Source of the DNA: Chlorokybus atmophyticus
Lineage: Eukaryota > Plantae > Mesostigma and Chlorokybus algae
Direction: 5' to 3'
NCBI GenBank assembly: GCA_009103225.1
Contig: RHPI01002504.1
Location: forward strand, 1-64,000
Length of the DNA stretch: 64,000 bases
Numbering within the stretch: position 1 is the stretch's first letter; each line of letters begins with the position of its first letter. Below are positions 1 through 20,430 of the stretch, piece after piece. A program made the translations under genes and the position numbers. The notes under the pieces were generated by a model that worked only from the letters and a program-made list of their open reading frames with translations, was not told where the DNA came from and searched no databases.

Positions 1-1
1 C

Positions 2-2246
2 GCTGCTGCTGTTGCCGCCAAGGCTTCAGCCAACCCACCAGCTGATGACCATATGGCAGCCCTCATGGCGCGTATGGCACGCTTGAAGGAAGACAAGGAG
101 CAGGACTACCGCGCCTGCTACGCTGCCCGATGGGCGCTGATGGCTGCAAAACGCGAGAGAGATAGGAAAACTCCGTCCCGCGTTCATCATGACGAGCACG
201 AGGGGAAGCTGCAACAACATCAGCAGGCACCTCCTCCGAAGCCACCAGTGGTGCTGCCTCCGCAGCAACAGCCACACCGGCTACAACGTCGACTCCACCA
301 ACGTCAGCAGCACCCACTGCAATTGCACCACAACCTGGTACACCGATGGACACCGTGACACCGATACTGGTGAGCACAATGGCAACAGTCGCCATCTCTA
401 CCGAATCTGCACCAGCGAGCGGTGCACTTCCCACTGCAGCAGTGCCTCTGTCCGTAGGCGTTGAGACAACTCTCGCACCACTGACCGGTACCTACGCAAC
501 TGCCACAATTGCCATCGTCGAGCCCGCTGTCTTTGCAGCGACGCGCGCAGCCACTCTGCCCGCTCTCGACGCCACTCAGGCTGTCCCAACTGGTCAGCTA
601 GCTGAGCGAGCATGGGAGACCATCCTGCGCGGAGCAGACCCCACTACCATCGCCTTCGGTCGGGGGGGGGCGAGCGCACCACGCGTGTCGCCCGCAATGA
701 TCGCGTCTTCCCGCTACCAGAGGTCCACACCCTTCCAGCACTCCCTCAACACCAATTGGAAGACGAGATCCTTGCTGGCACTGCACCTCCGATGCGTGAC
801 AGGGTGTTCTTGATCAGCTACAGCCCACCTGTAGTGTTGGAGTTGGCCCTGCAGCTGTTCTGGGCGTTGCACAACAATATGCAGACCGCCCCGCACCAGC
901 CTGCACGTATGCCAACCACCACCTTTGAACCCAGCCCGCTGAACACGTATCGGGACCGCCGAGACACCGTCCAGCAGCGCATCGCCGACGCAGCCGACCT
1001 GCCTTTGGGCACTGATGAAGCACTCGGACCTCCTGCAACCGCTCGCCTTCATCAGCGCTACCACGCACTGAAACAAGCATATTATTGGCGACAGGATCAA
1101 GCTGCCGCCATTGCTGCACGTAAACAAGCTCTTGAAGCTACGCGTGCACCAGTACCTCAGTCACCAACTGCTGGTCCATCCTCCAGCACCACTCCGCTCT
1201 TCGTCGAGACCAACTCTGACTAAGCGAGCACGTTTGCTCAACAAATCAGGGGGGTGATCGCCCCGTTGCTGCCTGCGCTGGTGGAGGATCTGCCTAAGGA
1301 CCAAAGGGAGCCAGGGAGGGGCTACCTTACACCACAAGGGTGTACACAAAGAGATGGAGCAGGACTGGTTCGAGAGCAACAACTACGCACTGCTCTGTTG
1401 CGACAAGCAACCATGCTGCATCGGCAAGAAGGCATCGGACTTCGGCAGATGCTTGGGATGCGAGACAATGGCAACGCGGCACGCGCACAGTTAATGACGT
1501 GGCTGGTCACCAACCATCCCGCAATCCCGTTGTTCGCATTCGGCGCCAGAATAGCGTGGGTGGACGCATTCCTTCGCTCCATACGGCAAGCCTATGATGA
1601 AGTGGCTTCCGCCGCTACGGACACTCTGGAGGGAGCTCTGGAGGCTATACTGAGTTTGCCAGGAGTGGAGGCAGGACGTAAGCACAGGCGCATCGCTGCT
1701 GCTTACGAGCAGCACGTCCAACAGCCAGAGACCCGCCTCACTGTACGCACACGAGCAATAACAGTGCTGAAAGTGGGAGTGGTCAACGGCAGATGGGATG
1801 CTTACATGGCAGGGATCCTCAAGGTGCCCACCATTACCCACGACATGAGAGCGCGGCTCCTACGCGCAGTGTACCTGCAGCCCATGCCTCAGAACCATCG
1901 CTATATAGACGTGAACAACAATGCGACGGCTACATGGGAAGGTACACTAGTCAGAGAGGCAGCTCATGCTGTGCGATGGACCTATGCAGAGGAGCAGGCT
2001 GCACGAGAGGCAGTCCCGCAGACACCAGGTCCTCCAGGGTTCCCGCCACAGCCACTGGCCACTCCTCCTGGCATGACAACAGCTGCACAGAGGGTCAACC
2101 CTCCTGCACCTCCACTTGGACAGGTTGCAGCAGCACCTCCAGTGCCTAGACCACCACCACTTCTACCAGTGCAACCAGCCTGGTCAGCCGCGCCGCGCAT
2201 TACCCACACTTGTATCTTATCCAGGCTCCTACGCGTTCCGCAATGA
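2..2246 (+). pseudogene. gag-like ORF of the retrotransposon, broken by about 2 frameshifts and 1 stop
   Basis: ORFs 53-358, 346-813, 612-1223 and 1254-2246 chain together. 612-1223 and 1254-2246 share a frame separated by one TAA, and one shift falls in a G9 run at 662-670. Ala/Thr/Pro-rich linkers; no zinc knuckle seen. Confidence 0.55.
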
Positions 2247-2430
2247 AGGCGACGGCATGGTGTTAGACTCCAACACTGGACAGCTGGAAGAACCCAATGC
2301 CCGTGAGCGCGAGCATGCTATGGGATTCTTTTCAAGCAGCATCACAGGCTCCACGCTGACAACCAGTCAACAGTGTCAGTTGTTAGGGCGCGCCATGGAT
2401 CAAAACAGCATGGTGTGGTACTTGGAAATG
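2146..2430 (+). pseudogene. C-terminal remnant (TRD end, motifs IX and X) of a C5-cytosine DNA methyltransferase fused upstream of RT
   Basis: DHHHFYQCNQPGQPRRALPTLVSYPGSYAFR...EEPNAREREHAMGF...QQCQLLGRAMDQNSMVW; EPxxxERExAMGF matches motif IX and LGRAMD motif X; motifs I, IV, VI and VIII not found. Confidence 0.7.
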
Positions 2431-5400
2431 TGCTTTGATTTCCATGACCGCCATGTGTCCTTCCAGGAGCTCGAACACCTGGCTGGGGGGTGGATTGCTC
2501 GCTTTTCAGAGACCAAAGCAGCACACACCGCCCTCGAGACCGCCCATATGGAGGAGCAGGCAGCAGTCACTGTGGAAGACATTCCAGTGGTCGCCAACGC
2601 TACCTCGTGGTCCCACGCCATTGGACCGCTGGCCATAGGCCAAACTCGAGAGCAACTCGAGGCTCTCCTCAACAAGTGGAGGAGCCAATTCAGCTTCAGT
2701 GTGAAGGAGCTGGGCATCTGCTCAGCATACCAGATGGACATTGAACTAGTGGACACCGAACCGGTGTTCAGAAGACAGTACCGCCTCTCCAAGCTAGAAG
2801 AAGACTTGGTGGAACAGAGGTGCAAGGCGCTGCTAGATGCAGGCCTGATCGAGGAGTCCACATCGGACTTTGCGGCCGCGACCGTCATGCTACTGAAGAA
2901 AGATTCAGCAGGCAACTGGACAGACCGGCGCATGTGTGGCGACTATCGCCCCCTCAACAACAAGACCAAGCAGGACAGGTGTCCAATGCCTACCGCAGAA
3001 GGCATCTTTGACGATGTAGGAGACTGCACGGTCTTTAGTATCCTGGATATGCGCCAAGGGTACAACCAGATCGCCATCAAGGAGGAGGACAAGCACAAGA
3101 CTTCCTTCTGGGGAAACCGGCAGCTGTACCAGTGGAAGGTCATGCCCTTTGGACTGAAGAGAAGAGAGAAGAAGAGAACGCTCCGGCCAAGTTCCAGCGC
3201 GTCATGGACAAAGCCCTCAAGGGGTTGGACTTCGCACGCTGCTACATCGACAACATCCTCATCTTCAGTCACAGCAATGAGGAGCATCTCGAGCACATCG
3301 AAGAGGTGCTACAGAGGCTGAAGGAAGTCGGGATGACGGTGCACCCTGACAAGTGCACCTTCTTCACCCACAAGGTACCCTACCTAGGACACATGATTGT
3401 GCCCCATGGTGTGTACGTACAGCAGGCCAAAGTGGAGGCACTGGTGGCTATCCCTGCCCCCACAGACCTCACGCGGCTGCGGGCCTTCCTCGGCCTTGCC
3501 AACTATTACCGCCGGTTTGTCAAGGACTTTGCCAAGATCGCAAGGCCTCTCAACGAACTACTGAAGAAGGACACCGAGTTCTTGTGGAAGGAGGCACAAC
3601 AGGAGGCCTTTCAGGAACTGAAGCTCCGCCTCACCACAGCTCCCATTCTGCAACGCCCTGACTACACCAGGTCGTTCATCCCGCACACAGACTGGAGCTC
3701 GGCATGGGGGCCGTGCTCGTACAGCACGATAACAACAAGAAGGAGCGCGTAGTGTCGTACGCTAGCCGCAGCAACAACAGTGCTGAGGCCAACTACAGCA
3801 GCTACGAAGGGGAGTGTCTCGCCGCAGTGTGGGCCATCTCCTTCTTCCGACCCTTCCTGTTTGGACGGCAGTTCCAACTGGTCACTGACCATCAACCCCT
3901 CAAGTGGCTAATGAACAACCAGCACTTGACAGGAAAGTTAGCACGATGGGCGCTGCTGCTCCAGGAGTACGACTTCGAGGTGGAACACCGCGCAGGCCTT
4001 GCCAACCAGGATGCGGATGGCCTCAGCCGTAACCCCCACCTCAGCACCAACGACGCCACAGGCGCCCAACATGAGTTGGTTCATACAGCTGCACCTCCAG
4101 GTGTGGCCACCATGTTCTCTGTCGCTGCGCTACGCTCAGGACGCAGGACTCAGATCGCTGAGGCAGCAGCAGACAGGGACATGCCCGCTCTCAAGCCCGC
4201 CATCATCACCACAGCTCCTTTATCAGAAGAAGCGGTCGTTGCCGACCCTGAGGTGGATGATGAGGAGCTGGCACCCACCGACACACGACAAGACATCTGG
4301 CTGGACGAGCCATCCCTCGCACTGCTTCAGACTGGACAACTTCCAGCAGGCATGAGCGCACGCGAGAAGGACCGCGTCCGGCAACGCACTCAGCGTTACC
4401 GCTGGGCCAACGACAGGCTGTATCGACGGATACAAAATGCAGATCTGGAGGTCCCCACACCAGCTGCACGTGAAGGCATCATCTCCTCCCTTCACACCGA
4501 GCTCGGGCACTTCGGCGTTAAGCGCACGGTCAGCCTGGTCAGGACCCAGTACTGGTGGTATGGGGTGCACAGACAGGTGCGGGGGTTTGTCAGCAACTGT
4601 CAGCAGTGTGACATGGTTCGCGCCAGCCTCAACACGCGCAACGCCACCTTGCATCCCCTTCCCATTTCCGGGTTGTTCTACCGCTGGGGACTGGACATCC
4701 TCGGAGACCTAGCGCCCTCAGCGCGAGGCAACCGCTACATCCTCGTCATGATCGAGCACTTCTCCAAGTGGGTGGAGCTGGTGCCCCTGCTCGACAAGAG
4801 CAGTGAGGGAGTAGCCCAGGCTTTCCTCTCCCATGTACTCGGACGCTTCGGTTGCTGCACTGAAGTCATCACCGACCAGGGTACGGAGTTCAGAGGAGCC
4901 TTCGACAAGCTTGTCGACAGATGCTTCATCAACCACCGTCGCACCTCACGCGACCACCCGCAGGCCGACGGCCTCGCCGAGCGTACCGTGCAGACCATCA
5001 AGAAGGCACTGCGCAAGTACGTCCTCGCCTACGAGAAGAATACCTGGGATGATCACCTCCCATGGGTAGCAATGGGCTACCGGCTGTCCAAGCAGGCAGC
5101 CCTGCGAGAGTACAGTCCATACTATCTACTGTTCGGAAGGCAGCCATTGCTCCCTTTCCGCGCGCAGCAGGAGGTTGACAGAGTGGTGGACAATCTCGAC
5201 AACCCCGACGAGATGTTGTATGACCTGACAGTGCGCAGTGCGCTGTTCGAACACACAGTCCCCATGGCCTTCAACAACCTGCGCATCGCGCAGCACCGCG
5301 ACACGCTGCGCTACGAGCGTGTGCGCAGTGGTTTCTACAAGGAGCGGGAGCGCCGCTTCGAGTCGGGAGACTTCGTCTACCGTATGGCGTCTACACGCGA

Positions 5401-5755
5401 CACCCTCGATACCTCCGTCGGGCGTGCTGTCTACAAGGTATTGAAGGTGCACCCCACAGGGGTACTGGACCTGCTGGGACAACGAGGCGAGCGTGTGAAG
5501 GACAACATGGTCAACTGCGCGCCCTGTCATCTCCCCTACATTGCTGGCTTTACCAAGATCCAGCACCCGCGTCCGCTGCACAGCACCCGATGCGAAAAGT
5601 GTGGCAGCGCCGACGACGACCCATTGATGATGTTATGCGACGGCTGTAATCAAGGCATGCACTGCTATTGCCTTGACCCTCCACTGGACGCAGTACCCTT
5701 GTGGGAGTACTGGTGCGATGACTGCCGCATCAACGGTCCCCCACACAGTCGGTAG
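2431..5755 (+). pseudogene. pol: reverse transcriptase, RNase H, integrase (HHCC, DDE) and C-terminal PHD finger; frameshifted
   Basis: RMCGDYRPLN, LDMRQGYNQI, VMPFGLK, YIDN (YxDD mutated), TDW/MGAVL, YEGECLAAVWAI, TDHQPL, H-x4-H...CQQC, LDIL, TDQG, ADGLAERTV, CEKC...CDGC...HCYC...WCDDC. A 17-bp AG insertion at 3160-3176 and a second shift near 3700; no aspartic protease motif seen. Confidence 0.93.
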
Positions 5756-5801
5756 GAACTGAGTTCTGGAGCAGAGGGCTACCCCAGAATCTCAGGGGGG
5801 G

Positions 5802-6635
5802 TGGCTTGTTGACTGTGTGCACTACGACACAGTCTGTACACAAAGGTGGCGAGCGGCATCGGCTCGTCCACTGCACTAAACACCGCGTAGGCTCATCTTC
5901 AAGCCTATGCCCACGATTGGGGGGTTGTCTTTTGCTTGCATGACTCCAATGCAATGCACGGCACTAGCATGCGTGCAGCACTAGCACTCCTCCGCAGCCT
6001 GTCCGAGACAAGGTTGCCCTCGACCATGGCAGGCACGACAGCTGTCATGCCATCTACCCTCGCATGCCAGTCCTTCTCGAGCATGCCTACACCCAGACCC
6101 ACGCCCGGGCTACCAGCATGAAGACCGCGTAAGCCCCAGCCTACTGCTAGCTACTGTACCACTCATGTAGCATGTAGCTAGGGCTACGTTATAGACCTGT
6201 CTGTAGGGACCGCGCGTAGCTGATCAGTTGTAAGTCTGTTAAGAACACATGTGCTATATCGAGTCTTAGGAGATTTCCGAAATAGCATGAGGCCTCGATG
6301 TGACCGTTGGCCTAGTGCCCGCGTGGCACTGCACAGTCATGATTTGACATGTATAAGTAGGAAGTCACGTCACCAGACTGGCTGGTGACACTGTAAGTGA
6401 GTACTGTGAGTACTAGGAGTACTAAGAAGTAAAGACTCTCTTTCTAAAGAGCTTGTGAAGCGACTTGAACTGGAAGCACGCTGTCCCGGTTGCCAAGAAT
6501 TCCCTTACTGCGTGAGACACGGTGCATTCTCTTGTGCGCTGTGCCTGTCATTGCTGTGAGCTTGGCGGTGGTGTGTTGTCTCATCAGCTAGGGTGTTGTA
6601 TCCACGTGTTGCACACTCATTCACCTTACTTAACA
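5802..6635 (+). repeat. 3' LTR (~834 bp)
   Basis: Starts TGGC right after the PPT and ends ...CTTAACA; the 3' end is inferred from the canonical AACA. Confidence 0.75.
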
Positions 6636-6692
6636 GTGTATCATTCTATGCACTCATGCAAAGAACTGTGTCCACAGCACTACCTATCGTAG

Positions 6693-6931
6693 TGGCTTGT
6701 TGACTGTGTGCACTACGACACAGTCTGTACACAAAGGTGGCGAGCGGCATCGGCTCGTCCACTGCACTAAGCACCGCGTAGGCTCATCTTCAAGCCTATG
6801 CCCACGATTGGGGGGTTGTCTTTTGCTTGCATGACTCCAATGCAATGCACGGCACTAGCATGCGTGCAGCACTAGCACTCCTCCGCAGCCTGTCCGAGAC
6901 AAGGTTGCCCTCGACCATGGCAGGCACGACA
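6693..6931 (+). repeat. Truncated second LTR copy (239 bp)
   Basis: Direct repeat of 5802-6040 with one mismatch (A5880 vs G6771). Confidence 0.95.
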
Positions 6932-7021
6932 CCATCAAGCAGCGATGCACCGTCAGTTACCCACACGCATTACGCCGCGCGAAAAAAATGGCAGGCACGT
7001 TCATACCGATCGCATACCGAG

Positions 7022-7407
7022 ATGCCTTCGGCTCTGGTCACCGACGACGACCCCATCAACCGCGCCGTGATATCGCGCGCGCTCAGTACGGCAGGCTACA
7101 CCGTGGTGACCTGCGCTACCGGCGCGGAAGTCCTCGCGCAAGGCCCGCGGCTCCGCTTCGATGTCCTCATCGTCGATGAACGCCTGCCCGACATCAACGG
7201 GTCCGACCTCATCGAAACTCTGCACATTTACGGGATGTGCCCAAGGAGGCGCGAGTCGTGTTTGTATCGACCGCGGACCTCTCCGATCGCTACTCCCGGC
7301 TGCGCGACATGAACGTATGCGCCGTGTTCCGCAAACCGCTTAAAGTCACCGACGTGGTCAGTTGCATCAAGCGCGACCGCGGCGGCGCCTCTTTCGAAAC
7401 CTTCTGA
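7022..7407 (+). pseudogene. Stand-alone CheY-like response-regulator receiver domain, one frameshift at ~7226-7233
   Basis: MPSALVTDDDPINRAVI...FDVLIVDERLPDINGSDLI, then after a frame change DVPKEARVVFVSTAD...AVFRKPLKVTDVVSCIK. Acidic pocket, phospho-Asp, S/T and KP are all present. Confidence 0.85.
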
Positions 7408-7783
7408 TCGCGCTAGATTTTCGCCTCTAGGAGCGTAGGCCAGTCTAGGGGCCGGCAATCAGCGGCGGCCAGAGGATGTTTCGCAATAGGAACCTCAGCG
7501 TGCAGATCCCCGACAATTCAAGTAATCCGCGCATGCTGTGCGTGCTGTGCATGCTGTGTGGGACGATTATGACTATCACCGCTGCTGCCTGGCTCTTGCA
7601 GACGCTAGAAGGGACCGCGTCGTTCCCATATGCCCGAAGCCGAAGCCGCCGCCACCGCCGGCGGCCTTTGCGCCATGTGCGTTATTATGTTGGTTAGGGG
7701 TCGTGAAACCCGCACGCCCTCGTGTCTTAACCCGTTGCGTTCCAGGCAAGCGAGTAGCGGATGGCGAGCTGTGCCCCCAAGAC

Positions 7784-9004
7784 ATGGAAGAGCTGGCGAC
7801 GCTTCTCGAGATGACTCTCGATTCGTCCCTCATGGATTCCATGGAAGGTTCGGTCGCGCCGCAAAACTCGCCCGCAGTCGCCGCCGCCGTCGCTTCCGCC
7901 GACACTTACCAAGTGACGGAGTCCATGGCGTCGGTAAACCTGCGCAACGAATATCCGGAGCGCAAACTAAACCTCCGCGTGCTGTTCGACGCCCTGAACC
8001 GCAGCGACCTCGCGCCGGTGTTGCAACGAGTGTCCCCGAGGCACTTCACTTCCGCCCACCTGCGCAAGGTGGTCGCGCGCGTGCCGGGGATGTTCGGAAC
8101 GCCAAAACAGTTTCGCAAAGGATCTTCGGTGACGGCCACTCTGTTGTTCGCCGCCGGCGAAGGAGTCGATGACCTGCAGATCAACCCCGATTACATTCAG
8201 TGGGGTGACGCCGCGTACGGCCACCTCGACGTCTTTCTCACCCTGTTGACCTCTGACACGGAGAGCTACAACATCGCCGTGCGCGTGCATCGCAACGGCT
8301 GCATGATGCCGCGCATGAAGCCGCCATCGAGCGCTTGCCGCGGAAGAGAACTCGGCGTCATCGGCGCCTACATCGAGCTCGCCGGCATCCTCGCGCGTGC
8401 CGCCATAGCCTGCGGTGCGGCGGACGTCCCGTACGGCGTCAGGGACGTCGATCTTACCTGCCTGAACATCCAATGGGACGCGGGCAGGACGTTCGAGCCC
8501 CGCGCGACCTCGTTGGCGATGGGCGCCACGTACCGCCTCGCAGACAACGACGCGATCAAGCCCCCACTGTACTTCAAGACCGTCGGTCCCGACTCGCCGA
8601 TCAAGCTGGCGACGAAGGCGAAGCGGAACGTCGAATGCCATCCCAAACCCTCTGTTTGCGTGCACGTCGGTGGGGTGGTCCAGGTGTGGGGGTGCAAAGA
8701 CTTCGCGATGGCCGATGCGCACTTTCGGCAGGTCACGGCGCTCCTCGCCGACGTGCCGATGGACCCCACGGCGCAAACCCGCATGAACAAGAGCGGCGCG
8801 ATTCGAAGGCGCGCAAGGAAGCCCGACCAGAGGTCTGTCATGGGCGTTCAGTACCCCAAGTGGAAGGTGCCCGCTCTGCGCCGCTCGATATTTCAGCTCG
8901 CCGGGTACGAGCCTTCCCTCCGCGCCAAGAAGAAGGAGCTTTTCGAGGAACTATTAGCCGCGGTTCGCTACAAGGCTAGTCTAGAGAACGACAGTGAGTC
9001 TTAA
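7784..9004 (+). CDS. Divergent TATA-box-binding-protein-like factor (NCLDV type)
   Basis: Two TBP-like repeats: YQVTESMASVNL...KLNLRVLF / NIAVRVHRNGCMM and VDLTCLNIQWD / PSVCVHVGGVVQVWGCKDF...FRQVTALL; intronless; frame is open from 7538. Confidence 0.6.
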   Translation: MEELATLLEMTLDSSLMDSMEGSVAPQNSPAVAAAVASADTYQVTESMASVNLRNEYPERKLNLRVLFDALNRSDLAPVLQRVSPRHFTSAHLRKVVARVPGMFGTPKQFRKGSSVTATLLFAAGEGVDDLQINPDYIQWGDAAYGHLDVFLTLLTSDTESYNIAVRVHRNGCMMPRMKPPSSACRGRELGVIGAYIELAGILARAAIACGAADVPYGVRDVDLTCLNIQWDAGRTFEPRATSLAMGATYRLADNDAIKPPLYFKTVGPDSPIKLATKAKRNVECHPKPSVCVHVGGVVQVWGCKDFAMADAHFRQVTALLADVPMDPTAQTRMNKSGAIRRRARKPDQRSVMGVQYPKWKVPALRRSIFQLAGYEPSLRAKKKELFEELLAAVRYKASLENDSES

Positions 9005-9559
9005 TTGATCTAATGAGATTGCAATGCATCGCTCTTTAAAATTTATGCACATCGGTAATACATGTCGCGCGCGAACAACGTATCGGCTGCGGGCGGCATC
9101 GCCGCCGCCACAGCGGCCGCCGCGCCCTTCGGCGCGTGGCTGAAACCCGCCGATCTGCGCAGCTTCGCGCAGCGAACGGACTGGGTGGGGCTTCACAAAA
9201 CCACCCTAATCCTACTGCGGAACGTCTAGAGTACTCCAAGGCCGCGCGCCTCCTGCGCACCATGGCGATGCCGCTGTGTGGGTGCTTTGGAGCACCCAGA
9301 ACTATGCCTACGCGCATGGCCACGCCACCGCGAGTAGGATATTAGGACTTGAACAGGGAACAATACACAGGGCCGTGGGACAGTCCGCGGGACAATCCGC
9401 GGGGCCGCGGCCTGCCACTGGGACTCCTACCCTAACCCTATATATATTTGAGTCTGCAGGCGAGCATTGCGGCAGCCATCACCATAGGGTGTGCAATTGT
9501 GGTCTCCACTGTCTTCTATCGTCTGCGTTGCAGTCTTACCAGTGACCGCAGAGTCGACC

Positions 9560-11581
9560 ATGGCGAAGCGATGCTGCAAGTGAGTCACTGTACTACCTTT
9601 GCCCACCCTCTCTGTCTCTCTCTGTGCATGTGTGTGCGCACTTGAGCGTGTGCAACTTGCGCCGGTATGGTCTTAGTAATGGGCTTAGCGTGCACGCATG
9701 TGACTGCACGAGCTGGCTGGGGCATGAAGAGTTCTGTTACCTTCGCCCCACCTCATGGCAAGCATCTTATGATGAAATACTACCTTCAGGAACATACAGC
9801 TTGCCTGACATGTGTGACTGACTCTCCATGTGGTTCTGGTGTCGCAGTTTTGGCGTTTGCTTGGCTGACGTTCTGCTCTGCGCTGTTACCGCTGTTTTCA
9901 CCTTTGTCATTCCTGCTGCCGGGCAGAGCGCCATCTCTGCATGCGCTTCTGTATTAATCCAGGTAACCTGATGTTGTCATAGCACGAATGTGGGTGCGCC
10001 TTGAGGCATGAGTTCTCCTTTCATTTCCCCCCCACGGCGACCGTTTCCGCTATGTGTGTGCGAGGTTTTACAGATGGGTGTGAGTATGACATGTCCATTG
10101 TTTGTGTGCAGGGCGTCTACAACTCTATATCTTAGGGCAGTTCAAGCCAGAGTTATCAGACGTTCCAGACCACTGTATGCACTTGGGCAGATTCTTACAT
10201 GTTTCAACAGTATCAAAACGACTACAGCGCCAACAGCGCCAGCAGCACGGTGAAAAACATTGAAGCGACAGCGACCCAGTTCGGCGTTTGGAGTGCTAGC
10301 GCAGGCGCCAGCGCAAAAGAGTCGCACCTTTCATCCGACCAGTTCTCGCTATTTGTGAAGAACGTAGATGACTACAAGATACATGCCTGTTCTGCAGCCT
10401 CGTCTTCCGCATCGTCAAGCGCTGATCTTCAATACATTAGCAATTGGATCGATCCCAACGTCATCAATGCCTGGCAGTCCTGCGTTAGAAATTTCGCCAC
10501 TGGTACCACTATCCAGAGCACGACGGGTGTGGACGGCGACTCGTGGGCTCTTAACATTGTTTTCGATAGCACAGTGTCGGGCGCAACAGCCTCTCTCAAC
10601 GGCTACTCGGTCACACCTGCCAAGGCTGCTGTCTGCCTTCTCCACGGGCCCAAAGTCACGCCAAGCGCCAAACTGTCATTGACGTGGCCGTTGGCAACAT
10701 CTGTCACCTACAACGTCTATTGCGTTAGGAATGCGACGGGTCTAACTAGGGCCGTGGACGTGTTCATCTACACAAGTGCAGGTACGTGATAATTGTTGCC
10801 GTTGTGTTATGCCATACAATGACATCTTCTTTGTCATGTGTTGACTTGCTTTGCCATCTACACAGGGGGATACTATCACGCCATACTCTACAACGCCCCT
10901 GCCCCCCCGCAACTTTCTCAGCTTCAGGCGCTCGTCAACCAGCAAGGCGTTACGCTCAACAACAAGGTCGCAGGGCTGCAGGCGCTCGTCAACCAGCAAG
11001 GCGCCACGCTCAACAACAAGGTCTCTGAGCTGCAGACTCATGTGGACAGCTTTTACGACGAAGGAAAGCTTACTGCCTATGCCCTCGACCTGTACGCCTG
11101 GGACGACCCGGCTCAAACGATCAGATACATGATTCAAGCTGCTTAAGGGGGGGATCAGAACTTCTCTCCAAGTGTTTTCATCATAAGGGACATGATGGCC
11201 GTTGCCAGCAACTTGGATTACCGGATCGCATATTGGACTGGTTCTGTCGACCTGCAGATGGCGAAAGAGACGGACGGTACATTTCAAGGAGTGAATGCTG
11301 TGCAAGTAGCGCATGATGCTTGGAATGTGGCATCTAGCACCCAGCAGAGGTTGGCTTCCATCTACGACGGCTGGGCGCTCACTGCTGTCGCAATTCGCAG
11401 CACGAGCGGGCAATATTTTGGATCCGGAAACAATAATATGGTGATGTGGCAGGATGGCTGCGTCACCTCGTACGGTGCTGGAGGCCAGGCAGGGGGCATA
11501 ATAAGTAGACACAACAGTAGGAAAATGCCCCAAGCCTCCCTCTTGATGTGTCAGTATAGAGCATGTAGTCTGAGTGTGTGA
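9560..11581 (+). pseudogene. Intron-containing secreted/surface protein gene with two in-frame stops, inside the viral block
   Basis: Exons 9560-9579, 9848-9962, 10112-10781 and 10866-~11581 splice in consistent phase (GT-AG). Signal peptide MAKRCCNFGVCLADVLLCAVTAVFTFVIPAAG; TAG at 10133 and TAA at 11144; TATATAT at ~9439. Confidence 0.7.
10925..11023 (+). repeat. 54-nt (18-aa) tandem duplication encoding a coiled coil
   Basis: QALVNQQGVTLNNKVAGL / QALVNQQGATLNNKV. Confidence 0.9.
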
Positions 11582-11637
11582 TCTATTACTCTGTGCATTT
11601 AGCAATAAGTCTGCTTATAGCGCTTGAATATCAATCA

Positions 11638-11831
11638 TGACGTGGGCGTTGCTATTTGGCGCATGGGTGCTGTCCAAGGTGTCTTTGTTGTTGGTTCCAT
11701 GCGTATCGTCGACCTTAGAAATAGCTCTGCACAATAAATGACGTGGGTAGTGTTGTTGGCGCACGGGTGTTGTCCAATGTGTTTTTTGGGTTCCACTGGA
11801 AGTATGTCGACCTTAGAAATAGTTCTACACA
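11638..11831 (+). repeat. Degenerate ~100-bp tandem duplication
   Basis: TGACGTGGG...GTCGACCTTAGAAATAG(C/T)TCT(G/A)CACAA occurs twice. Confidence 0.85.
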
Positions 11832-12342
11832 ACCAATTCAAAATTGAAATTGATGGAGGTTTTGTGTCTGCTAGCTGAAGCTTTATCAATTCTCTCCTTC
11901 TCAAACTGCTCTGTATCCCCCCTTGCTGAGTAAACTTTGTCGCGTACACATACTGAGAGCAGAACAAGCAGTAGTATAGGCGTTGCGTGTACAGTGATTG
12001 TGAGATATACCCGTATCGTTCATGTCAGTACGCACGCAAGGAATGTTTCTGCAATTGATAGTACATCGTCCCAACCACTATGTCCTGTTTCAAACAAGCG
12101 AAAAGCGAATTAAGCGTCCTTGTACGCCTCCTCGAGCGTTTTGACCAGAATCTTAACGACGTCCGGCTGACTGCAGCCGTAAGCGCCGTTTGCGCCGTCT
12201 TCTCCCACTTGCTGTTCGGCTGCAGCGGGCTGCGCAGGCGCTGGAGACGCCAGAGCAGAATGCGGGCGGTTGAGATCGATGTCGAGTCGGGGTCGGAGAG
12301 CGGAAGCCGCGATGCGCACATCGCACATCTGCGTGACGCGCC

Positions 12343-12774
12343 TCAAGCACTGTACCTGGCGGCGATCGCCGGCGGCGCGGACAACAACGTACATCGCGCA
12401 AGCATCGCATCTGCGCGCCCCGTGCCACCTCGCCATCCCCATCCCGCGAGAATAGGATCCACCTGCGGGTCGCTCGCGAAGAACAGCCGCTTTCCGTGCG
12501 TCGGCCGCGGATCGAAGTAATCCTTCGACAGCCAGCCTTCCACCCCCCACTTCGACACCACAGCCACATACAGAGGCATGTCCTGAATGAATCGCAGCGT
12601 CACGTCGCCATCTGCGAGCTCCACCGTCGACTTGCGTCCCGCGCGACCGATCTCTAGGAGCTTCAAGCCGCCGCCGCCAGCTCCGCCCTCCGCCGCCGCC
12701 GCCGCCGCCGCCAGCGCTCGCTTGGGCGCCGCCCCGCCGCACGACTTCCTGGCGGTTCTCCTGATGATCGCCAT
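12343..12774 (-). CDS. Histone H3 N-terminal tail mimic fused to an SH3-like domain; C-terminus probably continued past a stop or frameshift toward ~12110
   Basis: MAIIRRTARKSCGGAAPKRALA vs H3 [22 protein letters not shown], 13/22 identical with no gaps. Followed by an Ala/Gly linker and TVELADGDVTL...YVAVVSKWGVEGWLSKDYF; no histone fold. Confidence 0.7.
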   Translation of the reverse strand: MAIIRRTARKSCGGAAPKRALAAAAAAAEGGAGGGGLKLLEIGRAGRKSTVELADGDVTLRFIQDMPLYVAVVSKWGVEGWLSKDYFDPRPTHGKRLFFASDPQVDPILAGWGWRGGTGRADAMLARCTLLSAPPAIAARYSA

Positions 12775-12864
12775 CCTCACCGCCGCCCGCTGTCCAGGAC
12801 CATGAGTGTGCGTCGCTGACTTGGCATAAAATGCTGAGCCTTATACCACGATCTCGCGCATATC

Positions 12865-13953
12865 ATGGCAACGTTCGAAGATGTTCTCGTACCGCTGATT
12901 CACAACGCGCGCGCGCTGGGCCTGGAAGAAACCTCGGCCATAGCTTGCTGCAGCAAGTTCTGCCGTGACACGGTGGCCTCGATCCCCGCGAGAGTCCCCT
13001 CAGCAGTAACGGAATTGCCCCTCGAGATCGATCTGGACCACCCCGATCGATGCTCGAGATGCGACCATCCCTACGCGCTGTTCCAGTGGCCGTTCGAGGG
13101 ATCCGACTGCGGAGCCCGGCTGTGCTACGACTGCCTGCTCCCGCGAGCCTGGCCGAACGCGGAACTCGATGACGCGACCGCGCCCCCTCGTGCCACCAGG
13201 CTGCGCGTAATACCCCACACCAGCGCGGTCAGGCTGTTCGGTCTCGGTGGCGACACCAGGCTCGCTCCGTACGTGGTGCAGCGGTCGATGGGCGGACGCG
13301 TCTGCGGCGTCTACTACAGCCTGCGCGACGTGGTCGCCTTGGCCGTATCCAAAAGCGGATCGTTGCAGGCCGTGCGCAACAAGTTCCGCAGGCGCGAACT
13401 CAACCGGCAGCGCCGGCGCGAACTGCCCGCGCAGCGCTGCGCGCTCGCCAAGGCGGCGCTCGCGAGGGCGAAAGAAACGGACCCCTTCCTGTCGGAAGCC
13501 CTGTTTGAAGCGGCGGTCGAGGAGTACATCCGGAACGGCCGCGGCGGGACCAAGCGGCTGGCGGACAGCGCGGCGCGCTGCTCCGCGCTACACGCGGCGC
13601 TCGCCGCCCGCGGGCTGTGAGCGAGCCCTTACGAGTGGGCGTGCGTCTCGTACGTCAGCGGAGGCCTCCTCGCCCTGGATTGCGTCGTCGATAGCGTCGC
13701 CGCGCAGAACTTTTATTCCACGGAAACGGACTTCTCGTTGATCTTCGCCGACATGATAGAGCGAGAGCGCGGCCAACTACAGGCCGCGCACCACTTCGTG
13801 CAGCACGTCATGCTCGACGCTGACACTTACGCCAGGATCCACCGGCAGGCCCGCGCGGCCGCTGTCGACCGGTGGCTGCTGTGCGGCGGAGACCCGCGCG
13901 ACCTCCCGCCCGCAATCCGCGATGCTACATCGCCGCCACTGCCAGCGCGGTGA
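12865..13953 (+). pseudogene. F-box-like + XPA-like zinc/DNA-binding protein, in-frame TGA at 13618-13620
   Basis: CSRC-x20-CYDC, VIPHTSAVRLFGL, YYSLRDVVALAVSKSGSLQAV; the same frame stays open after TGA (ASPYEWACVSYVSGG...) to 13953. Confidence 0.55.
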
Positions 13954-14173
13954 GGCCCGTGACGACGATCTTCGTGGCCTCCTCCCCCGCGGCCGCCATC
14001 GCGCGCTGCAGCAGGATGCACTCCACCGACGTGTGCGCGCGGAACATGCTGGCCACAAACCCCGACGCGCAGTAGGCGGCATGCATCCGCGTGGATGCGA
14101 ACCAGATCGAGTGCAGCACGACGTAGGTGATCGCCGCCGTCCCTATGGCCCCGCACGCCTCCCGCCACACCAT
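13925..14173 (-). CDS. Small NCLDV-type membrane protein
   Basis: Hydrophobic N-terminus, H..W...MHAAYCASGFVASMF...SVECILL pattern, GC3-rich codons. Confidence 0.5.
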   Translation of the reverse strand: MVWREACGAIGTAAITYVVLHSIWFASTRMHAAYCASGFVASMFRAHTSVECILLQRAMAAAGEEATKIVVTGLTALAVAAM

Positions 14174-14238
14174 GCTCCCGGATTCCGCGCGCGCCCTTAC
14201 GTCGTCGCGCGAACAAAAGCGCGCGGACCGACATCATC

Positions 14239-14547
14239 ATGGAAGCGGCCGTCGCGGGGCTGCTGATGGTGGTGGTGGTGGCCGCCCTGCTGTCTTGCGT
14301 CGCGCGGTGCTGCGAATATTTCTCCCTGCCATGTCCGGCGAGCGAGCCGCTCCCACCGATCGTTCCCACGCACGACCTCGCCTGCGGCTCGCACGTCGTG
14401 GTGGTCAACCCCGACAGCAGCACCTGCGTCGGCGTGCTGAAGGACACTCATCAATCCACCGACTCGGCCGCGACCATGTCGAGCAGCCCCGACCCGTCCA
14501 GCAGCGCCTTGCCAACGGCGCCACCGGCGTCGACGGGAGCCCATTGA
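14239..14547 (+). CDS. Small N-terminally anchored membrane protein
   Basis: MEAAVAGLLMVVVVAALLSCVARCC TM segment, VVVVNPD motif. Confidence 0.45.
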   Translation: MEAAVAGLLMVVVVAALLSCVARCCEYFSLPCPASEPLPPIVPTHDLACGSHVVVVNPDSSTCVGVLKDTHQSTDSAATMSSSPDPSSSALPTAPPASTGAH

Positions 14548-15047
14548 TCCCACTCGTCGTAAGCGGCGTTCATCCCCCGGCACAGCGCGCACTCGCACAT
14601 GCTGCACGCGAACGGAGGCGGTTTGGCCTCGTCGTCTGCCGGCTGCGATTCCAGAGACGCCCCCGTGTCCCGTCCGAGTTCTTGCTCTGACGGCGCGCGA
14701 CACCTGAACCTGAGTCCGTACAGCACGTCTTCCAGGTGGACGAAACCTCTCCCCGCGTGCGCGCTGTACTCCACGGCGTCTGCCAGAGCGGACGCCACGA
14801 TGGCTCGCACGGTGGTCGCGTACGCTTGGGCATCAAAGACTCCATGCACGATTTCAGGAGCGCTCAACGCTCGGCCGGAGCGCATGAACGCGTAATCCTC
14901 TCTCGGCCTGCACGCGGGCTCGGGCGGGCGCTCGCTATCCCAGAACACGGCGCACGTGTAGCCGCGGTTGGTGCGCAGGAGGACTAGCGACGAACTAAAC
15001 GATACCATCACGGCGTGCAACACGCGATCCTCGTCACCCATCATCAT
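14451..15047 (-). CDS. Viral hypothetical protein with an H4-like alpha2-L2-alpha3 half histone fold and a Cys/Trp C-terminus
   Basis: DAVEYSAHAGRGFVHLEDVLYGL vs H4 [23 protein letters not shown], 12/23 identical; then CSMCECALC..MN..YDEWDQWAP. Confidence 0.6.
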   Translation of the reverse strand: MMMGDEDRVLHAVMVSFSSSLVLLRTNRGYTCAVFWDSERPPEPACRPREDYAFMRSGRALSAPEIVHGVFDAQAYATTVRAIVASALADAVEYSAHAGRGFVHLEDVLYGLRFRCRAPSEQELGRDTGASLESQPADDEAKPPPFACSMCECALCRGMNAAYDEWDQWAPVDAGGAVGKALLDGSGLLDMVAAESVD

Positions 15048-15390
15048 TACGGTTAGCGCGAAATTTGCTTCAAAGCAGACGCGTGCTGCTGCTCATTGCA
15101 GCTGCTGTTCTTCGTGTGCGTCTATTCCCGAACAACTACATCTCGCCAACTTCACCTCCGTGCGCCCGGCGATGCTGCTCGACGCTCCTAAAATCAAAGG
15201 ATACGTTGATGGCGTACGACTGTCGTTGATTCCTCTTAGGAATCGACAGTGCTCGCAACATTGCGTTGCGGGCAATGCGAGATGCGGCCACGTCAGATAT
15301 GGCGTGCTCGTACTGCGTTCGTGTACAGGACTTCAATGCGATGTCCGTGAACGTTCAGGTTTGACGTATCGGGACACCGGCAAAACGATA

Positions 15391-15852
15391 TCACATGGCG
15401 GACGGCGGGACAACGATGGCCACCGGTGGAAGGGTGCCTATCAAGGGAGCGTCGACGGCAGAGATGGGGTACATGCCCAGTTCGGTCGTCAGCACCGGTT
15501 CGGGGCCTTCGGGCCGCGCCGTCGCGGCAGCCAGGTTGGGCAGTGGGTCGATGGCGATCGGCAGATCGGTTGGGGGCACCACCGCCGGCTGCTGCGGGAT
15601 CAGAGGCGCGTCGCCCGCGATGTCGCCGTACACGGGGGACGCCCCGGTATCTTCGATGCCGCTGTCGGGGGACAATGGTGCGTACCCGAGAAAGCCGCTC
15701 TTACCCTTGAAGAGGCCCCAGCCCGACATGATGCCCACGGCGAAGCCCAGGACGAAGGCCATCGCGATCCAGCCGAAAGTGCCCATGTTGAACATGGCGG
15801 ATGTGTCGCCCGTCCCATAACCGGCGGTGCCGTAATAATCCCTGTAGCCCAT
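15391..15852 (-). CDS. Single-TM Pro-rich viral hypothetical protein
   Basis: ATG start, TM FGWIAMAFVLGFAVGIMSGWGLF, GC3-rich. Confidence 0.55.
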   Translation of the reverse strand: MGYRDYYGTAGYGTGDTSAMFNMGTFGWIAMAFVLGFAVGIMSGWGLFKGKSGFLGYAPLSPDSGIEDTGASPVYGDIAGDAPLIPQQPAVVPPTDLPIAIDPLPNLAAATARPEGPEPVLTTELGMYPISAVDAPLIGTLPPVAIVVPPSAM

Positions 15853-15922
15853 CGTTTGGTATGTTCGAAAGAAAAATAGCTGACGCTGGCGGGCGCCATA
15901 CCATTTTTCTCAGCCACTCGCA

Positions 15923-16300
15923 ATGGAGTTCCAGCGGCTGCGCTCCCGCTCCCGCTGGCGCAGGCTCAAGCGCATCCTCCGCGAGAGCTTCGTGGAGAGC
16001 GTAGTCGTTACGATGACCTTCGTCCTTATCTACTCGGTGAGCAACCACGACTCGAGCCGGACGCTCACCCTCTCGCGCCTGCCCCTGTTGCTGCTCATCT
16101 TCGTCATCATTAACGTCCTCATCAAGACGAGCTCCGCCACCGACAGCAAGTCACTGGTATTGGGCACGGTCAGCTCGCTGGGCAGCATGGCGATGTCGAA
16201 CCTGCTCTTAGTGCAAATATATATATTCTTGCGTACCGATACACGATGCAGCTGTGGCCCGAATCGACAACCGCGCGGGTGGCGATCGTCGCAGTTGTAG
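15923..16300 (+). CDS. Multi-TM viral hypothetical protein
   Basis: Basic N-terminus followed by 2-3 hydrophobic segments; divergent from the 15852 gene. Confidence 0.5.
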   Translation: MEFQRLRSRSRWRRLKRILRESFVESVVVTMTFVLIYSVSNHDSSRTLTLSRLPLLLLIFVIINVLIKTSSATDSKSLVLGTVSSLGSMAMSNLLLVQIYIFLRTDTRCSCGPNRQPRGWRSSQL

Positions 16301-16581
16301 CGCTAGCGGTCTGCGCGTTCGTTCTCCACCGCATGGGCGGCTTCAAGTCGGCCTTCGGCAGCCGTACCACCCGCTGCCACCACGCCGTCGAGCAGGTGTG
16401 CAAGTACGCCTCCCTCGCGGAGGGCACTAGCCCCGACGACGGGTACGCCGATTGCATGGAAACTATCAATTCCCTCGGCCCCCTCAAGTGCGCGTTTGTT
16501 ACCGAACGGCTGGCGTCCTGTCTCGCCGATTTTGAGGGCTCGCCCGACCTAAACAAGCTCTACCAGTGCTCTCAAAAGTGA
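16246..16581 (+). CDS. N-anchored Cys-rich small protein
   Basis: TM VAIVAVVALAVCAFVL, 6 further Cys, intronless. Confidence 0.55.
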   Translation: MQLWPESTTARVAIVAVVALAVCAFVLHRMGGFKSAFGSRTTRCHHAVEQVCKYASLAEGTSPDDGYADCMETINSLGPLKCAFVTERLASCLADFEGSPDLNKLYQCSQK

Positions 16582-16590
16582 TCGGCAAGC

Positions 16591-18331
16591 CTACCTGACC
16601 GGCGGATACTGCGGGAGCTTCATCCTCTGTGCTTGATGCGCGAATGTGTTCAAGCACACGGTGGCTATCCCACCTAGCACGGCACCAACGACATCCGGGT
16701 TTGCATTCTCAACTATGAAGGTGAGGAATGGAGGTGACGTCCACCCCGAGCCAGCTTCGTCGGGCCGATGGCGCGGCGGCGATGGTATCTGCGCGGCGTC
16801 GTTGTGCGAACCTGACATCGTCGCGTTACACGTCATGTTGAATACCGTCTTATTCGCGTTGCGCAAGACTTCCGGCGTCAAGTGCTCGTTTGTAAACGTT
16901 CTTCCGTTATTGACTACTTGAACTGGTGTCGCCGCCAAGGTTATGATCTCGGGTAACTCGCTCCATTTGAGGGGAGGATTAGCGCCGTCTTGGCGCCTCA
17001 TGTGTATGCGGCTCGTTCCGTTACCGTCCTGGCGCACGCACTGCGCGAGGTTGCGGACGCCTGTCCCACCGCCATAAACACGTTCGATGGCATCTGGGCC
17101 AGCATGCTCTCGAAAGTTCCGTTTTGAAATATCGTATCACGGAACTCCGGATCGGATGTTGGCTTAACGACCTCTTCTCGGGGTGCGCCCATATGAATTG
17201 CATCAACATCACCGCCGTCGCCGTCGAAGCGACCATCACGTTGAGCATGCGCACGGTCTTGCGAGGAACTCTCGGGATCCGCCAGAACGGCCGTTGGCTA
17301 CGCCACGACTCCAGCTTTCTCAGGACCGGGCGGGCCACCATCGCCGAGGCGGTGATGAGCTGCAGCGGCACGTTCCCGGGAAGGCAATAGCACCATACCT
17401 GCCGGGCGGCTTCGTTTATGAGACGCCTCCAGGTAGCTACCGGCACCGGAATCGGCCCTACTGGCTGGGGCGGCGGGGGCGGCAGGGGCGGGATGACGAT
17501 CGGGACGGGCGTCGGGTACACCAGTTCCTCTTGTGTGGTGTGAAAGCTGTTGTTGCTGGTAGCGGTGTGGTAGCTGCTGGTGCTGCTGGAGGAGCTGCTG
17601 CTGCTGCTGCTGCTTGTATCCGAATCGCGCAACGGGTACGGCGGGGGCCACCACCACCATAGCGGAGGTTGTTGGCCCTGCATGTTCGGGACGTGCGCGG
17701 GGGGCACCGGGGGAAAGTTTACGGGGTAGACGGCGTTGGCAGCAGCAGCGGCCGCATTGCCTGACCCCAATCCCCCGTTGCGCGCGCCGCTCCCGGCGCC
17801 TGGAAGGCTGTTAGTCGGAGTGCCGTTGTTCAGATACCGCGCGCTGCAGTAGATCACGTAGACCCCGTGCGACGCGTGCGGGCCCCAGAACGCCCAGAGG
17901 TCCTTCGCGTACCGCTTTGAGGTTCGCAAACCTCCCGCCAGCCACGAGGCCAGGACCGCGATCGCCGCCCAGACCTGCCATCCGAACAGGACGAGCAGCA
18001 CCTGCGCCAGCCGCACCAGCAGGGGCGACGAGCGCTTATTCAACAACGCCGTGCTCAATCGCCGCAGAACGAACACCAGTTCCCTTGCGAATCGGCGCTG
18101 CATTGCCGGGGTGTTGGCGGTCGTAAGAGGAATCGCCAAGTTCCTCCGTTTCTCGCTGCAATAGCGCTTGAACGCTTCGTCCAGGAGACCTTCCGCCAGC
18201 CGGATCTCCCTGGGCCGCGCTGTCGCCATGCGCTTCTTGTTTGCTTGCGCGGCCATCACGCCCGTCAGCGCGGCCGCGGACACCGCGCCCACTACCGCAG
18301 CCACCGTCAAGGCTTTCGTCGAACTGAACAT
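16591..18331 (-). pseudogene. Large membrane protein gene with at least 2 frameshifts
   Basis: ORFs 17021-18331, 16998-17192 and 16591-17037 overlap in succession; TM segments, Ser run and Pro-rich linker. Confidence 0.5.
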
Positions 18332-18896
18332 TCCGGGACCGTTCTATATGGCCGGGGATGGCCTCGCGCGCAGCGATCGAACTGTACTCCTTGCCCTCTT
18401 GTTTCGCACAGCCGCCCCCCTGGCGGCCGCGAGCGTTCGCCACGTCGTCATGCTCGAACTCGAGAAAAGATTGTGTGCCGATGCCAATGCGCGCGATGCC
18501 TCGCACGCCGGCGGGATTTCAGCAGAGGTCGATGTCGGGAAACCTTTTGGATTTGCGCGTGAATTCCGTCGTTAGGCTACGCGCCCTCGGGCTATCCCCG
18601 AAGCGCGAGTGGCGCGTGTAACGCATACTCGTCCGTCTCGGGTGGTTGCAGCAGGACTACAAGTACGAGGGGGCGCGGGAGGACCCCCAGCGGCAGAGGC
18701 GCCGCGCTCTGAGGGTGCGCGACCGCCGAGCGCTAGTCCGCGCCGGCCTCGTCGGGCCGCACCAGATAGTGCACCACTTCACGTTTGACGCACGAGACGC
18801 CGTGCGCATGCGCGGGATCAGCATCGTAAGTGCAGACTCGCACCAGCGGCACCACTCGCGGAAACATCTAATCGAAAAGCTCGGTGAGCTCATCGA

Positions 18897-19585
18897 TCAC
18901 CGCCGGTCGGGCAGCCGCTCGTCGCCGCTGGACGCCATCGCCATAGCGTCCAGCTGAACGAAGCGCACGCCCAGCGTGCGCGCCAGCGCGTCCGAAGCTC
19001 GCTTGGTCGGCCGGCCGCGCACGACTCTGAGGCTGTCGTTGGCGACCCTGGTCTTCGCTATGGCGTCCAGGCGCTGCTGCTGCCGCTGCAGCTGGTTGCT
19101 CTGCTCCCGCGCGGACCGCTTTTCCGGTGTCCGAGGCGGCGACCGGTTCGCGGCCGCCAACGACGAGGGAGCGCCCACCGGCGCGGTGATCGGAACCGTG
19201 CGGCCCTCGTAGTCGCTGTACATCATGTCGGCCGATAATTCGCGATACTTGCGATCCGAAAGGCCCTCTCCGAACCGCCGGAACTCGTCCAGGGACATGT
19301 GGTCCCCCCGTAAGCCCTCAGCAGCAACCGCGGCGGCGCGGCGCGGATGCCTCCGCCGATTTTCCCCACCACTTGCTTTCGCAGCAGCGTCAGCCACGTC
19401 CCGCACAGGTCCTTCCTCGCGCTGTTGCGGCTCAGGTTGAACGACTTTGCGCACGAGAAGCTGCAGAAGTTCCCGATCGTTTCGAACTTCTTGAGACGCT
19501 CATCGTACTTTATCGGCAGCCCGACAGGAGGCCCGCTCAGGGCGTGCCCGTCGTACCAGCATACGAGCTGGTCCGTATCTGCCAT
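18897..19585 (-). pseudogene. Poxvirus A1L/VLTF2-like late transcription factor, frameshift at a G6 run (~19303-19310)
   Basis: CWYDGHALSGPPVGLPIKYD...IGNFCSFSCAKSF...APPRLLLRAYGG, then shifted HMSLDEFRR...RPTKRASDALARTLG. Confidence 0.85.
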
Positions 19586-19663
19586 CGTCGCTTTCGGGCC
19601 GAGGTAGGCGCGCGCTGGCCTTACGCCCGCGCGGCTGGCAAAATTTGTGGCGCAGCGGTAGGC

Positions 19664-20430
19664 ATGAACATCATCCCCGGATCGTCCCTCGACGACCGCA
19701 TGGCGCAGATCATAGCAGCACCTCCACGACAACCAGGCCGGTCAAGCCGGATCAGAACCTCTCGATGGGCGCCTCGACGACATGGAAGTTGCGCTGGTGA
19801 CGCCGTCGGCCGCGGCCTCGCCGCGGCGACGACGGCCGCAGAGTCGCGGTTGGGAGAGCTCGCGGATCGCGTGAGCGCCGGCTCGCAGCTCGCGGACTCG
19901 CGAACTTCAGCCGTCGAGGCGCGCGTGGGAGAACTAGCGACGCGAGTCGCCGAGATGAACAAGCGCCTGTCTGCCCTCGACGCGCGACTCATGGAAGTGA
20001 CTAACCGCAACGACTCTGGGATCCAGCGCACGAGGGAAGCGGCGACGCGCATCTCGGACATGAAGCACGCCTCGCGGCCATGGATGCGCGGGTAGGCGAT
20101 CACGCCAACCGCAACGATACTTCGCTGCAACGCGCGGGGGAATTGGCGTCGAGGGTCTCCGATATGGACATGCGGCTCGCGGCCACTGACGCGCGGATCG
20201 CAGAGCACGCCAACGGAGACGACGCTGCGATCCAGCGCGCCGGAGACATAGCGACGCTCGTCACCGACATGGACCGGCACCTGGCCGCCATCGAGGCGCG
20301 GAATACTACGGAATTTTCGCCATCAGCAACAAACACGGGTGCTGGGGCCCCGGACGAGATACATACCGTCGCCCAGCGGGTCGACGCGCTGGAACGTAGA
20401 CTGGACAACCGGCTCAAGCTCATGCATTGA
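19664..20430 (+). pseudogene. Coiled-coil protein with ~35-aa repeats, frameshifted
   Basis: ELATRVAEMNKRLSALDARLMEVTNRND / ELASRVSDMDMRLAATDARIAEHANGDD / DIATLVTDMDRHLAAIEAR; ORFs 19373-20095 and 20080-20430. Confidence 0.6.

Follow-up and report, generated by a model that had tools for sequence, protein, structure and literature searches.

A remnant of a methyltransferase lies in frame before the reverse transcriptase (RT) of a broken Gypsy retrotransposon in the window, by which we mean the whole 64,000-nucleotide stretch of DNA analysed here. We put at roughly 80% the probability that it was left by an internal deletion in a gag–protease–DNMT–RT–RNase H–integrase–PHD polyprotein, DNMT standing for a predicted C5 cytosine methyltransferase of DNMT3 type. 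The parts of the element are as follows.

1–2157, +: coding region at the gag position with a Pro/Ala/Gln-rich linker at its end (ORF pieces 2–358, 193–813, 606–1223 and 1224–2246)
2107–2160, +: interval that would hold the deletion junction (per-residue profile scores; frame 3 upstream, frame 1 downstream; CCA-rich run at 2151–2160)
2149–2460, +: predicted C-terminal third of a DNMT3-type C5 cytosine methyltransferase, frame 1 (end of the target-recognition region, motif IX at 2290–2328 and motif X at 2380–2400; catalytic motifs absent)
2608–3398, +: Gypsy RT (Pfam RVT_1 in both frames; tblastn with P0157)
3585–3970, +: RNase H (Pfam RT_RNaseH_2 and RT_RNaseH; frameshift at ~3695, frame 3 to frame 2)
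4460–4951, +: integrase H2C2 zinc domain and core (Pfam PF17921, E 6e-15; PF00665, E 2e-06)
5591–5755, +: PHD finger, pol C-terminus and stop (Pfam PF00628, E 6e-07)
5794–5801, +: polypurine-tract-like run directly 5' of the terminal repeats (from sequence; putative role assigned by position)
5801–6931, +: 3' terminal repeats B–A–B (B 5801–6040, A 6041–6691, B 6692–6931)

A DNMT remnant native to its element

Frame 1 of the forward strand is open between stops at 2077 and 3321 (ORF list and sequence) and holds FYQCN at 2161, followed in that same frame by motif IX, EPNAREREHAMGF (2290–2328), and motif X, LLGRAMD (2380–2400). A phmmer search with the translation of 2161–2514 against 1.84 billion proteins returned 438 matches at E ≤ 1e-3, 121 of them at E ≤ 1e-10, the best with E 2e-22 and 52% identity; this similarity is far above chance. 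Among the 49 matches scanned (the top and the long ones of 150 listed), PF00145 begins upstream of the matched stretch in 22, and 13 of 30 Atlas feature matches belonged to a set whose leading cluster has PF00145 on 40% of its members. The motifs that the original prediction had read in the RT frame, FYQCN and methyltransferase motifs IX and X, are thus present and recur in relatives.

The segment itself gave no PF00145 match up to E 1, so the direct Pfam comparison that had been proposed came back empty and relatives were needed to identify the remnant; against the PDB, no DNMT was among its three matches up to E 10. These absences do not refute the assignment, because the relatives bridge the remnant to DNMTs. 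When the DNMT domain of the relative P0151 was searched against the PDB, the best 29 of 55 matches were all DNMT3A, DNMT3B or DNMT3C (best E 2.5e-09), with bacterial enzymes and DRM ranking below them, and its ERE.MGF and LLGQA aligned onto DNMT3 motifs IX and X. A 58-sequence profile that includes the window reached E 0.0012 against DNMT3A, half of that score coming from columns absent in the window. Motifs IX and X of the window align with the relatives and, via the relatives, with DNMT3; by alignment, the segment is a C5-methyltransferase remnant of DNMT3 type.

Alignment with ten full-length relatives revealed that the window retains only the region past motif VIII. A profile from 61 relatives gave a single match in the window, at 2110–2460 (profile positions 235–351 of 357), with a score of 136 bits that is not independent, as the profile's relatives were themselves found with the remnant. 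Profile positions 1–234, covering motifs I–VIII, were unmatched in all six frames of the 64 kb, a result independent of how the profile was built. With motifs I, IV, VI and VIII absent from the six frames, the window DNMT is a pseudogene fragment, and without the SAM-binding motif I and the catalytic cysteine of motif IV this copy cannot methylate DNA.

Downstream, the order RT–RNase H–integrase (Pfam RVT_1, RT_RNaseH, Integrase_H2C2 and rve) is that of Ty3/Gypsy elements. RVT_1 is matched in the frame of the remnant at about 2920–3159 (E 6e-07), where a GA-rich 17-nt extra stretch at ~3158 splits the RT and moves it from frame 1 to frame 3. The remnant had been described as in frame with the RT, which is correct for the N-terminal half of the RT and does not extend beyond the frameshifts at ~3158 and ~3695. 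The RT catalytic motif reads YIDN (3243–3254) instead of YxDD, and neither Pfam nor tblastn with P0157 found a protease in the window, whereas intact relatives have gag and an aspartic protease before the RT. Two pol frameshifts, YIDN for YxDD, the missing protease and a remnant out of frame with the upstream ORF together indicate that this copy is dead; it is unable to transpose by itself. Its two B repeats of 240 nt differ by one mismatch, and no second A copy was found within the window, outside which the 5' end of the element lies.

We distinguished two layouts among relatives, A with the DNMT before the RT and B with the DNMT between RNase H and integrase; the 150 listed matches to the remnant comprised 14 A, 40 B and 96 that were not classifiable. 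P0157, P0174 and P0193 are single ORFs of the order protease–DNMT–RT–RNase H–integrase, the first two ending in a PHD finger, and residues 1119–2299 of the 2,300-residue P0157 are colinear with window positions 2149–5734 (tblastn). Klebsormidium nitens KFL_009030040 and the Closterium gene models also have layout A. In the window, the remnant and the first half of the RT share one stop-free frame in the order seen in KFL_009030040, placing the DNMT inside the Pol frame.

Trees from three parts of the element placed the window with layout A. For the RT, support for joining A was 100/99 with 20 rows and SH-aLRT 82 with 44. The integrase (31 rows) joined four of the five A rows with a support of 98, and the remnant (36 rows), although filling only 29% of the columns, joined 11 of the 12 A rows with a support of 97. 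One long-branch row stood outside the A group in the larger trees (P0094 or P0220; P0094 in the 44-row RT tree). Near-duplicates were omitted throughout, and the 44- and 36-row trees contain all named B rows with enough RT and every fourth of the others (24 of 78). Because the RT, integrase and DNMT trees agree, we consider the remnant native to its element; that agreement rules out a DNMT fragment nested here from another element.

The probable deletion junction and other copies

Per-residue profile scores give a firm DNMT signal from 2149–2161, a weak one at 2110–2148 and none earlier, which places the junction within 2107–2160. The weak part scores 4.1 bits, a value reached by 1.2% of 1,492 control n-mers, and its boundary was picked post hoc. 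The upstream ORF (1224–2246) is in frame 3 and the remnant in frame 1.

A deletion had been predicted to have removed the gag zinc knuckle, the protease and motifs I–VIII. Protease and motifs I–VIII are indeed missing where intact relatives carry them; loss of a zinc knuckle finds no such footing, since the upstream ORF has no detectable gag homology and the gag-position ORFs of two metagenome loci, L002 and L004, also lack a canonical knuckle. In six full-length layout A relatives, 1,140–1,527 nt separate the protease motif from the residue equivalent to the junction, and 1,587–2,526 nt separate that residue from the last zinc knuckle. The missing stretch would therefore measure at least ~0.7 kb (from motif I to the junction), ~1.1–1.5 kb if counted from the protease active site, and 1.6–2.5 kb if the ancestor had a zinc knuckle. 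Template switching by the RT, or illegitimate recombination, between short similar stretches of the gag linker and of the DNMT probably made the cut.

The upstream ORF is presumably gag, judging by its position alone. It gave no Pfam, homologue, Atlas or gag-profile match, no longer relatives of it were found among 7,997 candidates, and its single-sequence fold was too poor for a fold search (pLDDT 37.7). One could therefore suppose that 1–2157 came from another element or gene that inserted into, or recombined with, the DNMT, so that the missing part was displaced and not deleted. None of 285 relatives shows detectable homology to the ORF, which scores −0.9 against a 29-row gag profile, no better than shuffled sequences (up to 7.0), as such a chimera would have it; yet the gag-position ORFs of L002 and L004 likewise lack a gag Pfam match, which makes an unrecognised upstream ORF weak evidence either way. 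The two sides of the junction are similar in contig depth and divergence and in GC and CpG content, and neither a terminal repeat nor a polypurine tract was seen where they meet. We consider a chimera very improbable.

An error of assembly among repeats seems to us a barely credible source of the junction. The window does contain 481 N in two gaps, the element exists in many copies and none of the listed contigs is shown bridging the junction, but the other lesions (the 17-nt extra stretch, a 4-nt loss and scattered transitions) resemble ordinary decay, and short look-alike motifs lie just where the break is.

Further copies bear on the age of the deletion. The region 1200–3400 is partly present in four public runs, two of which contain about half of its words, and in the related runs X1 and X2, compared over 1–7200, the element is covered by broken contigs ~96–99% alike. 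In both runs, the deeper contigs are without the 17 nt at 3158 (43 of a depth of 139.9 in X1 and 81.8 of 138.5 in X2) and have four extra letters at 3695 (52.5 of 62.7 and 68.6 of 73.9, respectively), so the common form of the family is less damaged than the window copy. Depth in X1 is similar across the junction (41.7 at 511–1731 and 45 at 2305–2880), contig depth not being the same as copy number. One X2 contig tracks the window to 2157 and is then unlike it for 211 letters; by eye, its 30 shown letters have no stop in any of three frames. TACCAG and CAACC occur both among the first letters of this divergent part and in the first bases of the window's DNMT, which fits a switch between look-alike stretches.

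If the junction were instead old and shared, the family would be an amplified derivative without protease and most of the DNMT, mobilised in trans, and the species would hold no intact DNMT copy. Several observations agree with such a history: depth at the family level is similar on either side of the junction, no deep left-side loose end lies at the remnant among 24 of 488 loose ends, protein searches found no near-identical intact protein (best identities 64%, a partial match, 48% and 50%), and loss does occur in the clade, 7 of 120 listed relatives being without DNMT and four of those forming one clade. Against it, the X2 contig departs from the window after 2157; the pol of the deeper contigs is free of both frameshifts, as suits an autonomous parent; the upstream ORF and the remnant are in different frames; and the remnant, like RT and integrase, is ~50% identical to its intact counterparts, which argues for selection until recently. 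We regard an old, shared junction as unlikely, and think it fairly probable that intact DNMT copies exist in this species, as the original prediction had supposed; the contigs of X1 and X2, from related organisms, hint at such copies indirectly.

At the 3' end, summed contig depth over most of the A repeat is 2–4 times that of the internal part, and five contigs of X2 diverge from the window after 6705, both consistent with a 5' A copy and thus an A–coding–B–A–B arrangement. Positions 6961–7200 are uncovered in X1–X3, which are therefore probably not from the window's own strain.

Within the upstream region, X1 and X2 also hold a second contig set at 1681–1920, of similar depth and with four small indels at 1819–1853. 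Before 1744, one X2 contig differs from the window; together with the indel-bearing set, it likely represents a sister subfamily with a different upstream ORF.

Methyltransferase-bearing relatives in green algae

KnitGypsy-Dnmt3 of K. nitens is described, in the accessible part of PMC5890265, as joining Gypsy domains to DIRS-type repeats, the DIRS arrangement being A–coding–B–A–B. It resembles the window element in its Gypsy pol with a DNMT3-related domain and in its DIRS-like repeats, which match the 3' B–A–B of the window. From its name and domains we take KFL_009030040 (P0284) to be a copy of it: this protein has a protease-like region, DNMT, RT, RNase H and integrase, and joins the window in the RT and DNMT trees. 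Its identity to the window is 38% in RT, 57% in RNase H and 47% in integrase, on which grounds the window element constitutes a separate family. The two also differ in that the window copy is frameshifted and lacks the protease and motifs I–VIII, and in the PHD finger, present at the end of the window element and absent from the partial K. nitens model.

The metagenome proteins P0157, P0174 and P0193 and Closterium P0168 and P0132 share the domain order of the window element, are its closest tree rows and have 47–53% RT identity to it. Unlike the window copy, they have motifs I, IV, VI and VIII intact in single ORFs of up to ~2,350 residues, with a gag that does not align with the window's upstream ORF. 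Chlorophyte PHD-Gypsy elements (Haematococcus lacustris, Chlamydomonas eustigma, Tetrabaena socialis and Pleodorina starrii) have related RT, integrase and PHD domains and a homologous DNMT3-like domain, but carry the DNMT between RNase H and integrase and stand apart from the window group in the RT, integrase and DNMT trees. Gypsy-7a_cRei is another PHD-bearing Gypsy, for which the legend in PMC9940879, the part of that source at hand, names no methyltransferase. Two further systems share a C5 methyltransferase with the window element and differ in its setting: SymbioDIRS-Dnmt3 is a retrotransposon with a tyrosine recombinase (accessible part of PMC5890265), and in EpiLTRs the DNMT is sister to DNMT4 and accompanied by an adenine methylase and a chromodomain (accessible part of 10.64898/2026.05.21.726589). 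The window copy thus adds a family, not a mechanism, to the class described in 2018.

Searching with the integrase–PHD region alone yielded 157 long proteins. Of these, 120 were listed, and the DNMT profile matches 113 of them (8 in layout A, 100 in layout B and 5 unplaced), leaving 7 without a match. Among the same 120, 109 span nearly the whole DNMT profile, and 73 of these fit all four patterns, for motifs I, IV, VI and VIII. The Pfam DNA_methylase model misses most DNMT domains of the 113 relatives. The named layout B rows are those of the four chlorophytes above, with a decayed DNMT in T. socialis and P. starrii. The DNMT also lies between RNase H and integrase in P0172, P0173, P0224, P0142, P0225, P0206 and P0237 and in loci L001–L004, PF00145 being mostly weak on these or blind to them. 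L001–L004 are what a metagenome scan with 124 pattern matches yielded: four loci that all carry the DNMT behind RNase H and in which a look for terminal repeats came up empty. In IMG/VR, none of 59 pattern matches proved to be a relative of the remnant. Among relatives without DNMT, P0187, P0200, P0215 and P0235 form one clade within the B branch (97) and P0175 lies in the A branch; such relatives are natural loss controls, some of whose models may start or stop short.

A G-patch domain is also found on the DNMT-bearing P0018, P0176, P0248, P0254 and P0277. P0068 carries the C-terminal part of a DNMT after its integrase core, together with a retroviral SH3 domain, and looks Copia-like.

The Gypsy-DNMT3 hosts named in 2026 are streptophytes only, in the accessible part of 10.64898/2026.05.21.726589, and green algae are loosely included, with no detail, among hosts of adenine- or cytosine-methylase retrotransposons in that of PMC6338049. 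Algal groups without gene-body methylation are typically without DNMT3 (PMC12344493, accessible part). The accessible parts of 10.1101/2021.11.30.470311 and PMC11982613 hold nothing on chlorophyte Gypsy-DNMT3 or on layout B, and in the literature found we met no description of DNMT3 in a chlorophyte Gypsy or of two positions, matters that subscription papers, theses, Repbase or supplements may cover. Green algae appear to harbour relatives of Gypsy-DNMT3 more widely than is reported in the papers found.

The two layouts may go back to one old Gypsy–PHD clade, to which the window element would belong, with a single capture of a DNMT3 before the chlorophyte/streptophyte split, the domain sitting before the RT in the streptophyte type and between RNase H and integrase in the chlorophyte type. 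For us this reading is evenly poised. The trees are unrooted and without host DNMT3, so that one capture followed by relocation looks the same in them as two captures. Were it true, self-methylating LTR elements would be common and overlooked in green algae instead of a Klebsormidium oddity, and would include chlorophytes whose hosts are reportedly without DNMT3. If the wide spread holds, the question left by de Mendoza et al. of how a retrotransposon profits from carrying a DNMT would become testable in culturable green algae, with relatives lacking the DNMT and broken copies like that of the window as natural controls. The window copy is useful as a pointer to the same DNMT3-like domain in these wider relatives.

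In the intact parent, the DNMT would have been made within Pol and packaged, and in the particle would have been either excised from Pol or still tied to it. By analogy, the DNMT of intact relatives would most likely put 5mC on new cDNA and the PHD finger could steer integration; for cDNA methylation by intact relatives, which had been suggested as self-methylation, we set the balance just on the favourable side. Domains of SymbioDIRS-Dnmt3 carried out de novo CG methylation in yeast; the K. nitens Gypsy DNMT domain, which is under purifying selection, produced no methylation there, in an assay that the authors deem inconclusive (all from the accessible part of PMC5890265). CpG depletion was rejected as a sign of self-methylation: the observed/expected ratio is 0.63–0.85 in the element versus 0.77 in host sequence at 22–64 kb, a resemblance that leaves base composition uninformative on methylation.

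Flanks of the element

On the 3' side of the element, 6932–10000 and 12001–21000 have a GC content of 60–63% and a CpG observed/expected ratio of 1.2–1.3, as against 52.5% and 0.77 in the host part at 22–64 kb. The long uninterrupted ORFs of 6932–21000 gave no Pfam or PHROG match except a response-regulator receiver at ~7034–7225, and the ORF at 7790–9001 had no match in the PDB or IMG/VR. Foreign DNA, perhaps a large DNA virus in endogenous form, may account for this block. No tRNA genes were found in the 64-kb window. The genes below were found in the host part; taken with the GC content and the layout A element, they suggest, tentatively, a streptophyte alga as host, the PLATZ gene presumably resembling those of land plants.

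22103–23605: SLU7 splicing factor gene
26831–27832: WD40 protein gene, presumably SEC13-like
46812–47684: PLATZ transcription factor gene
60252–61379: MATH-BTB/BACK protein gene

Between 31000 and 44100, a chain of inverted repeats 73–88% alike pairs 31.0–34.7 kb with 40.5–44.1 kb and suggests an old inverted duplication; a further inverted-repeat pair lies at 24651–24841 and 59679–59869.
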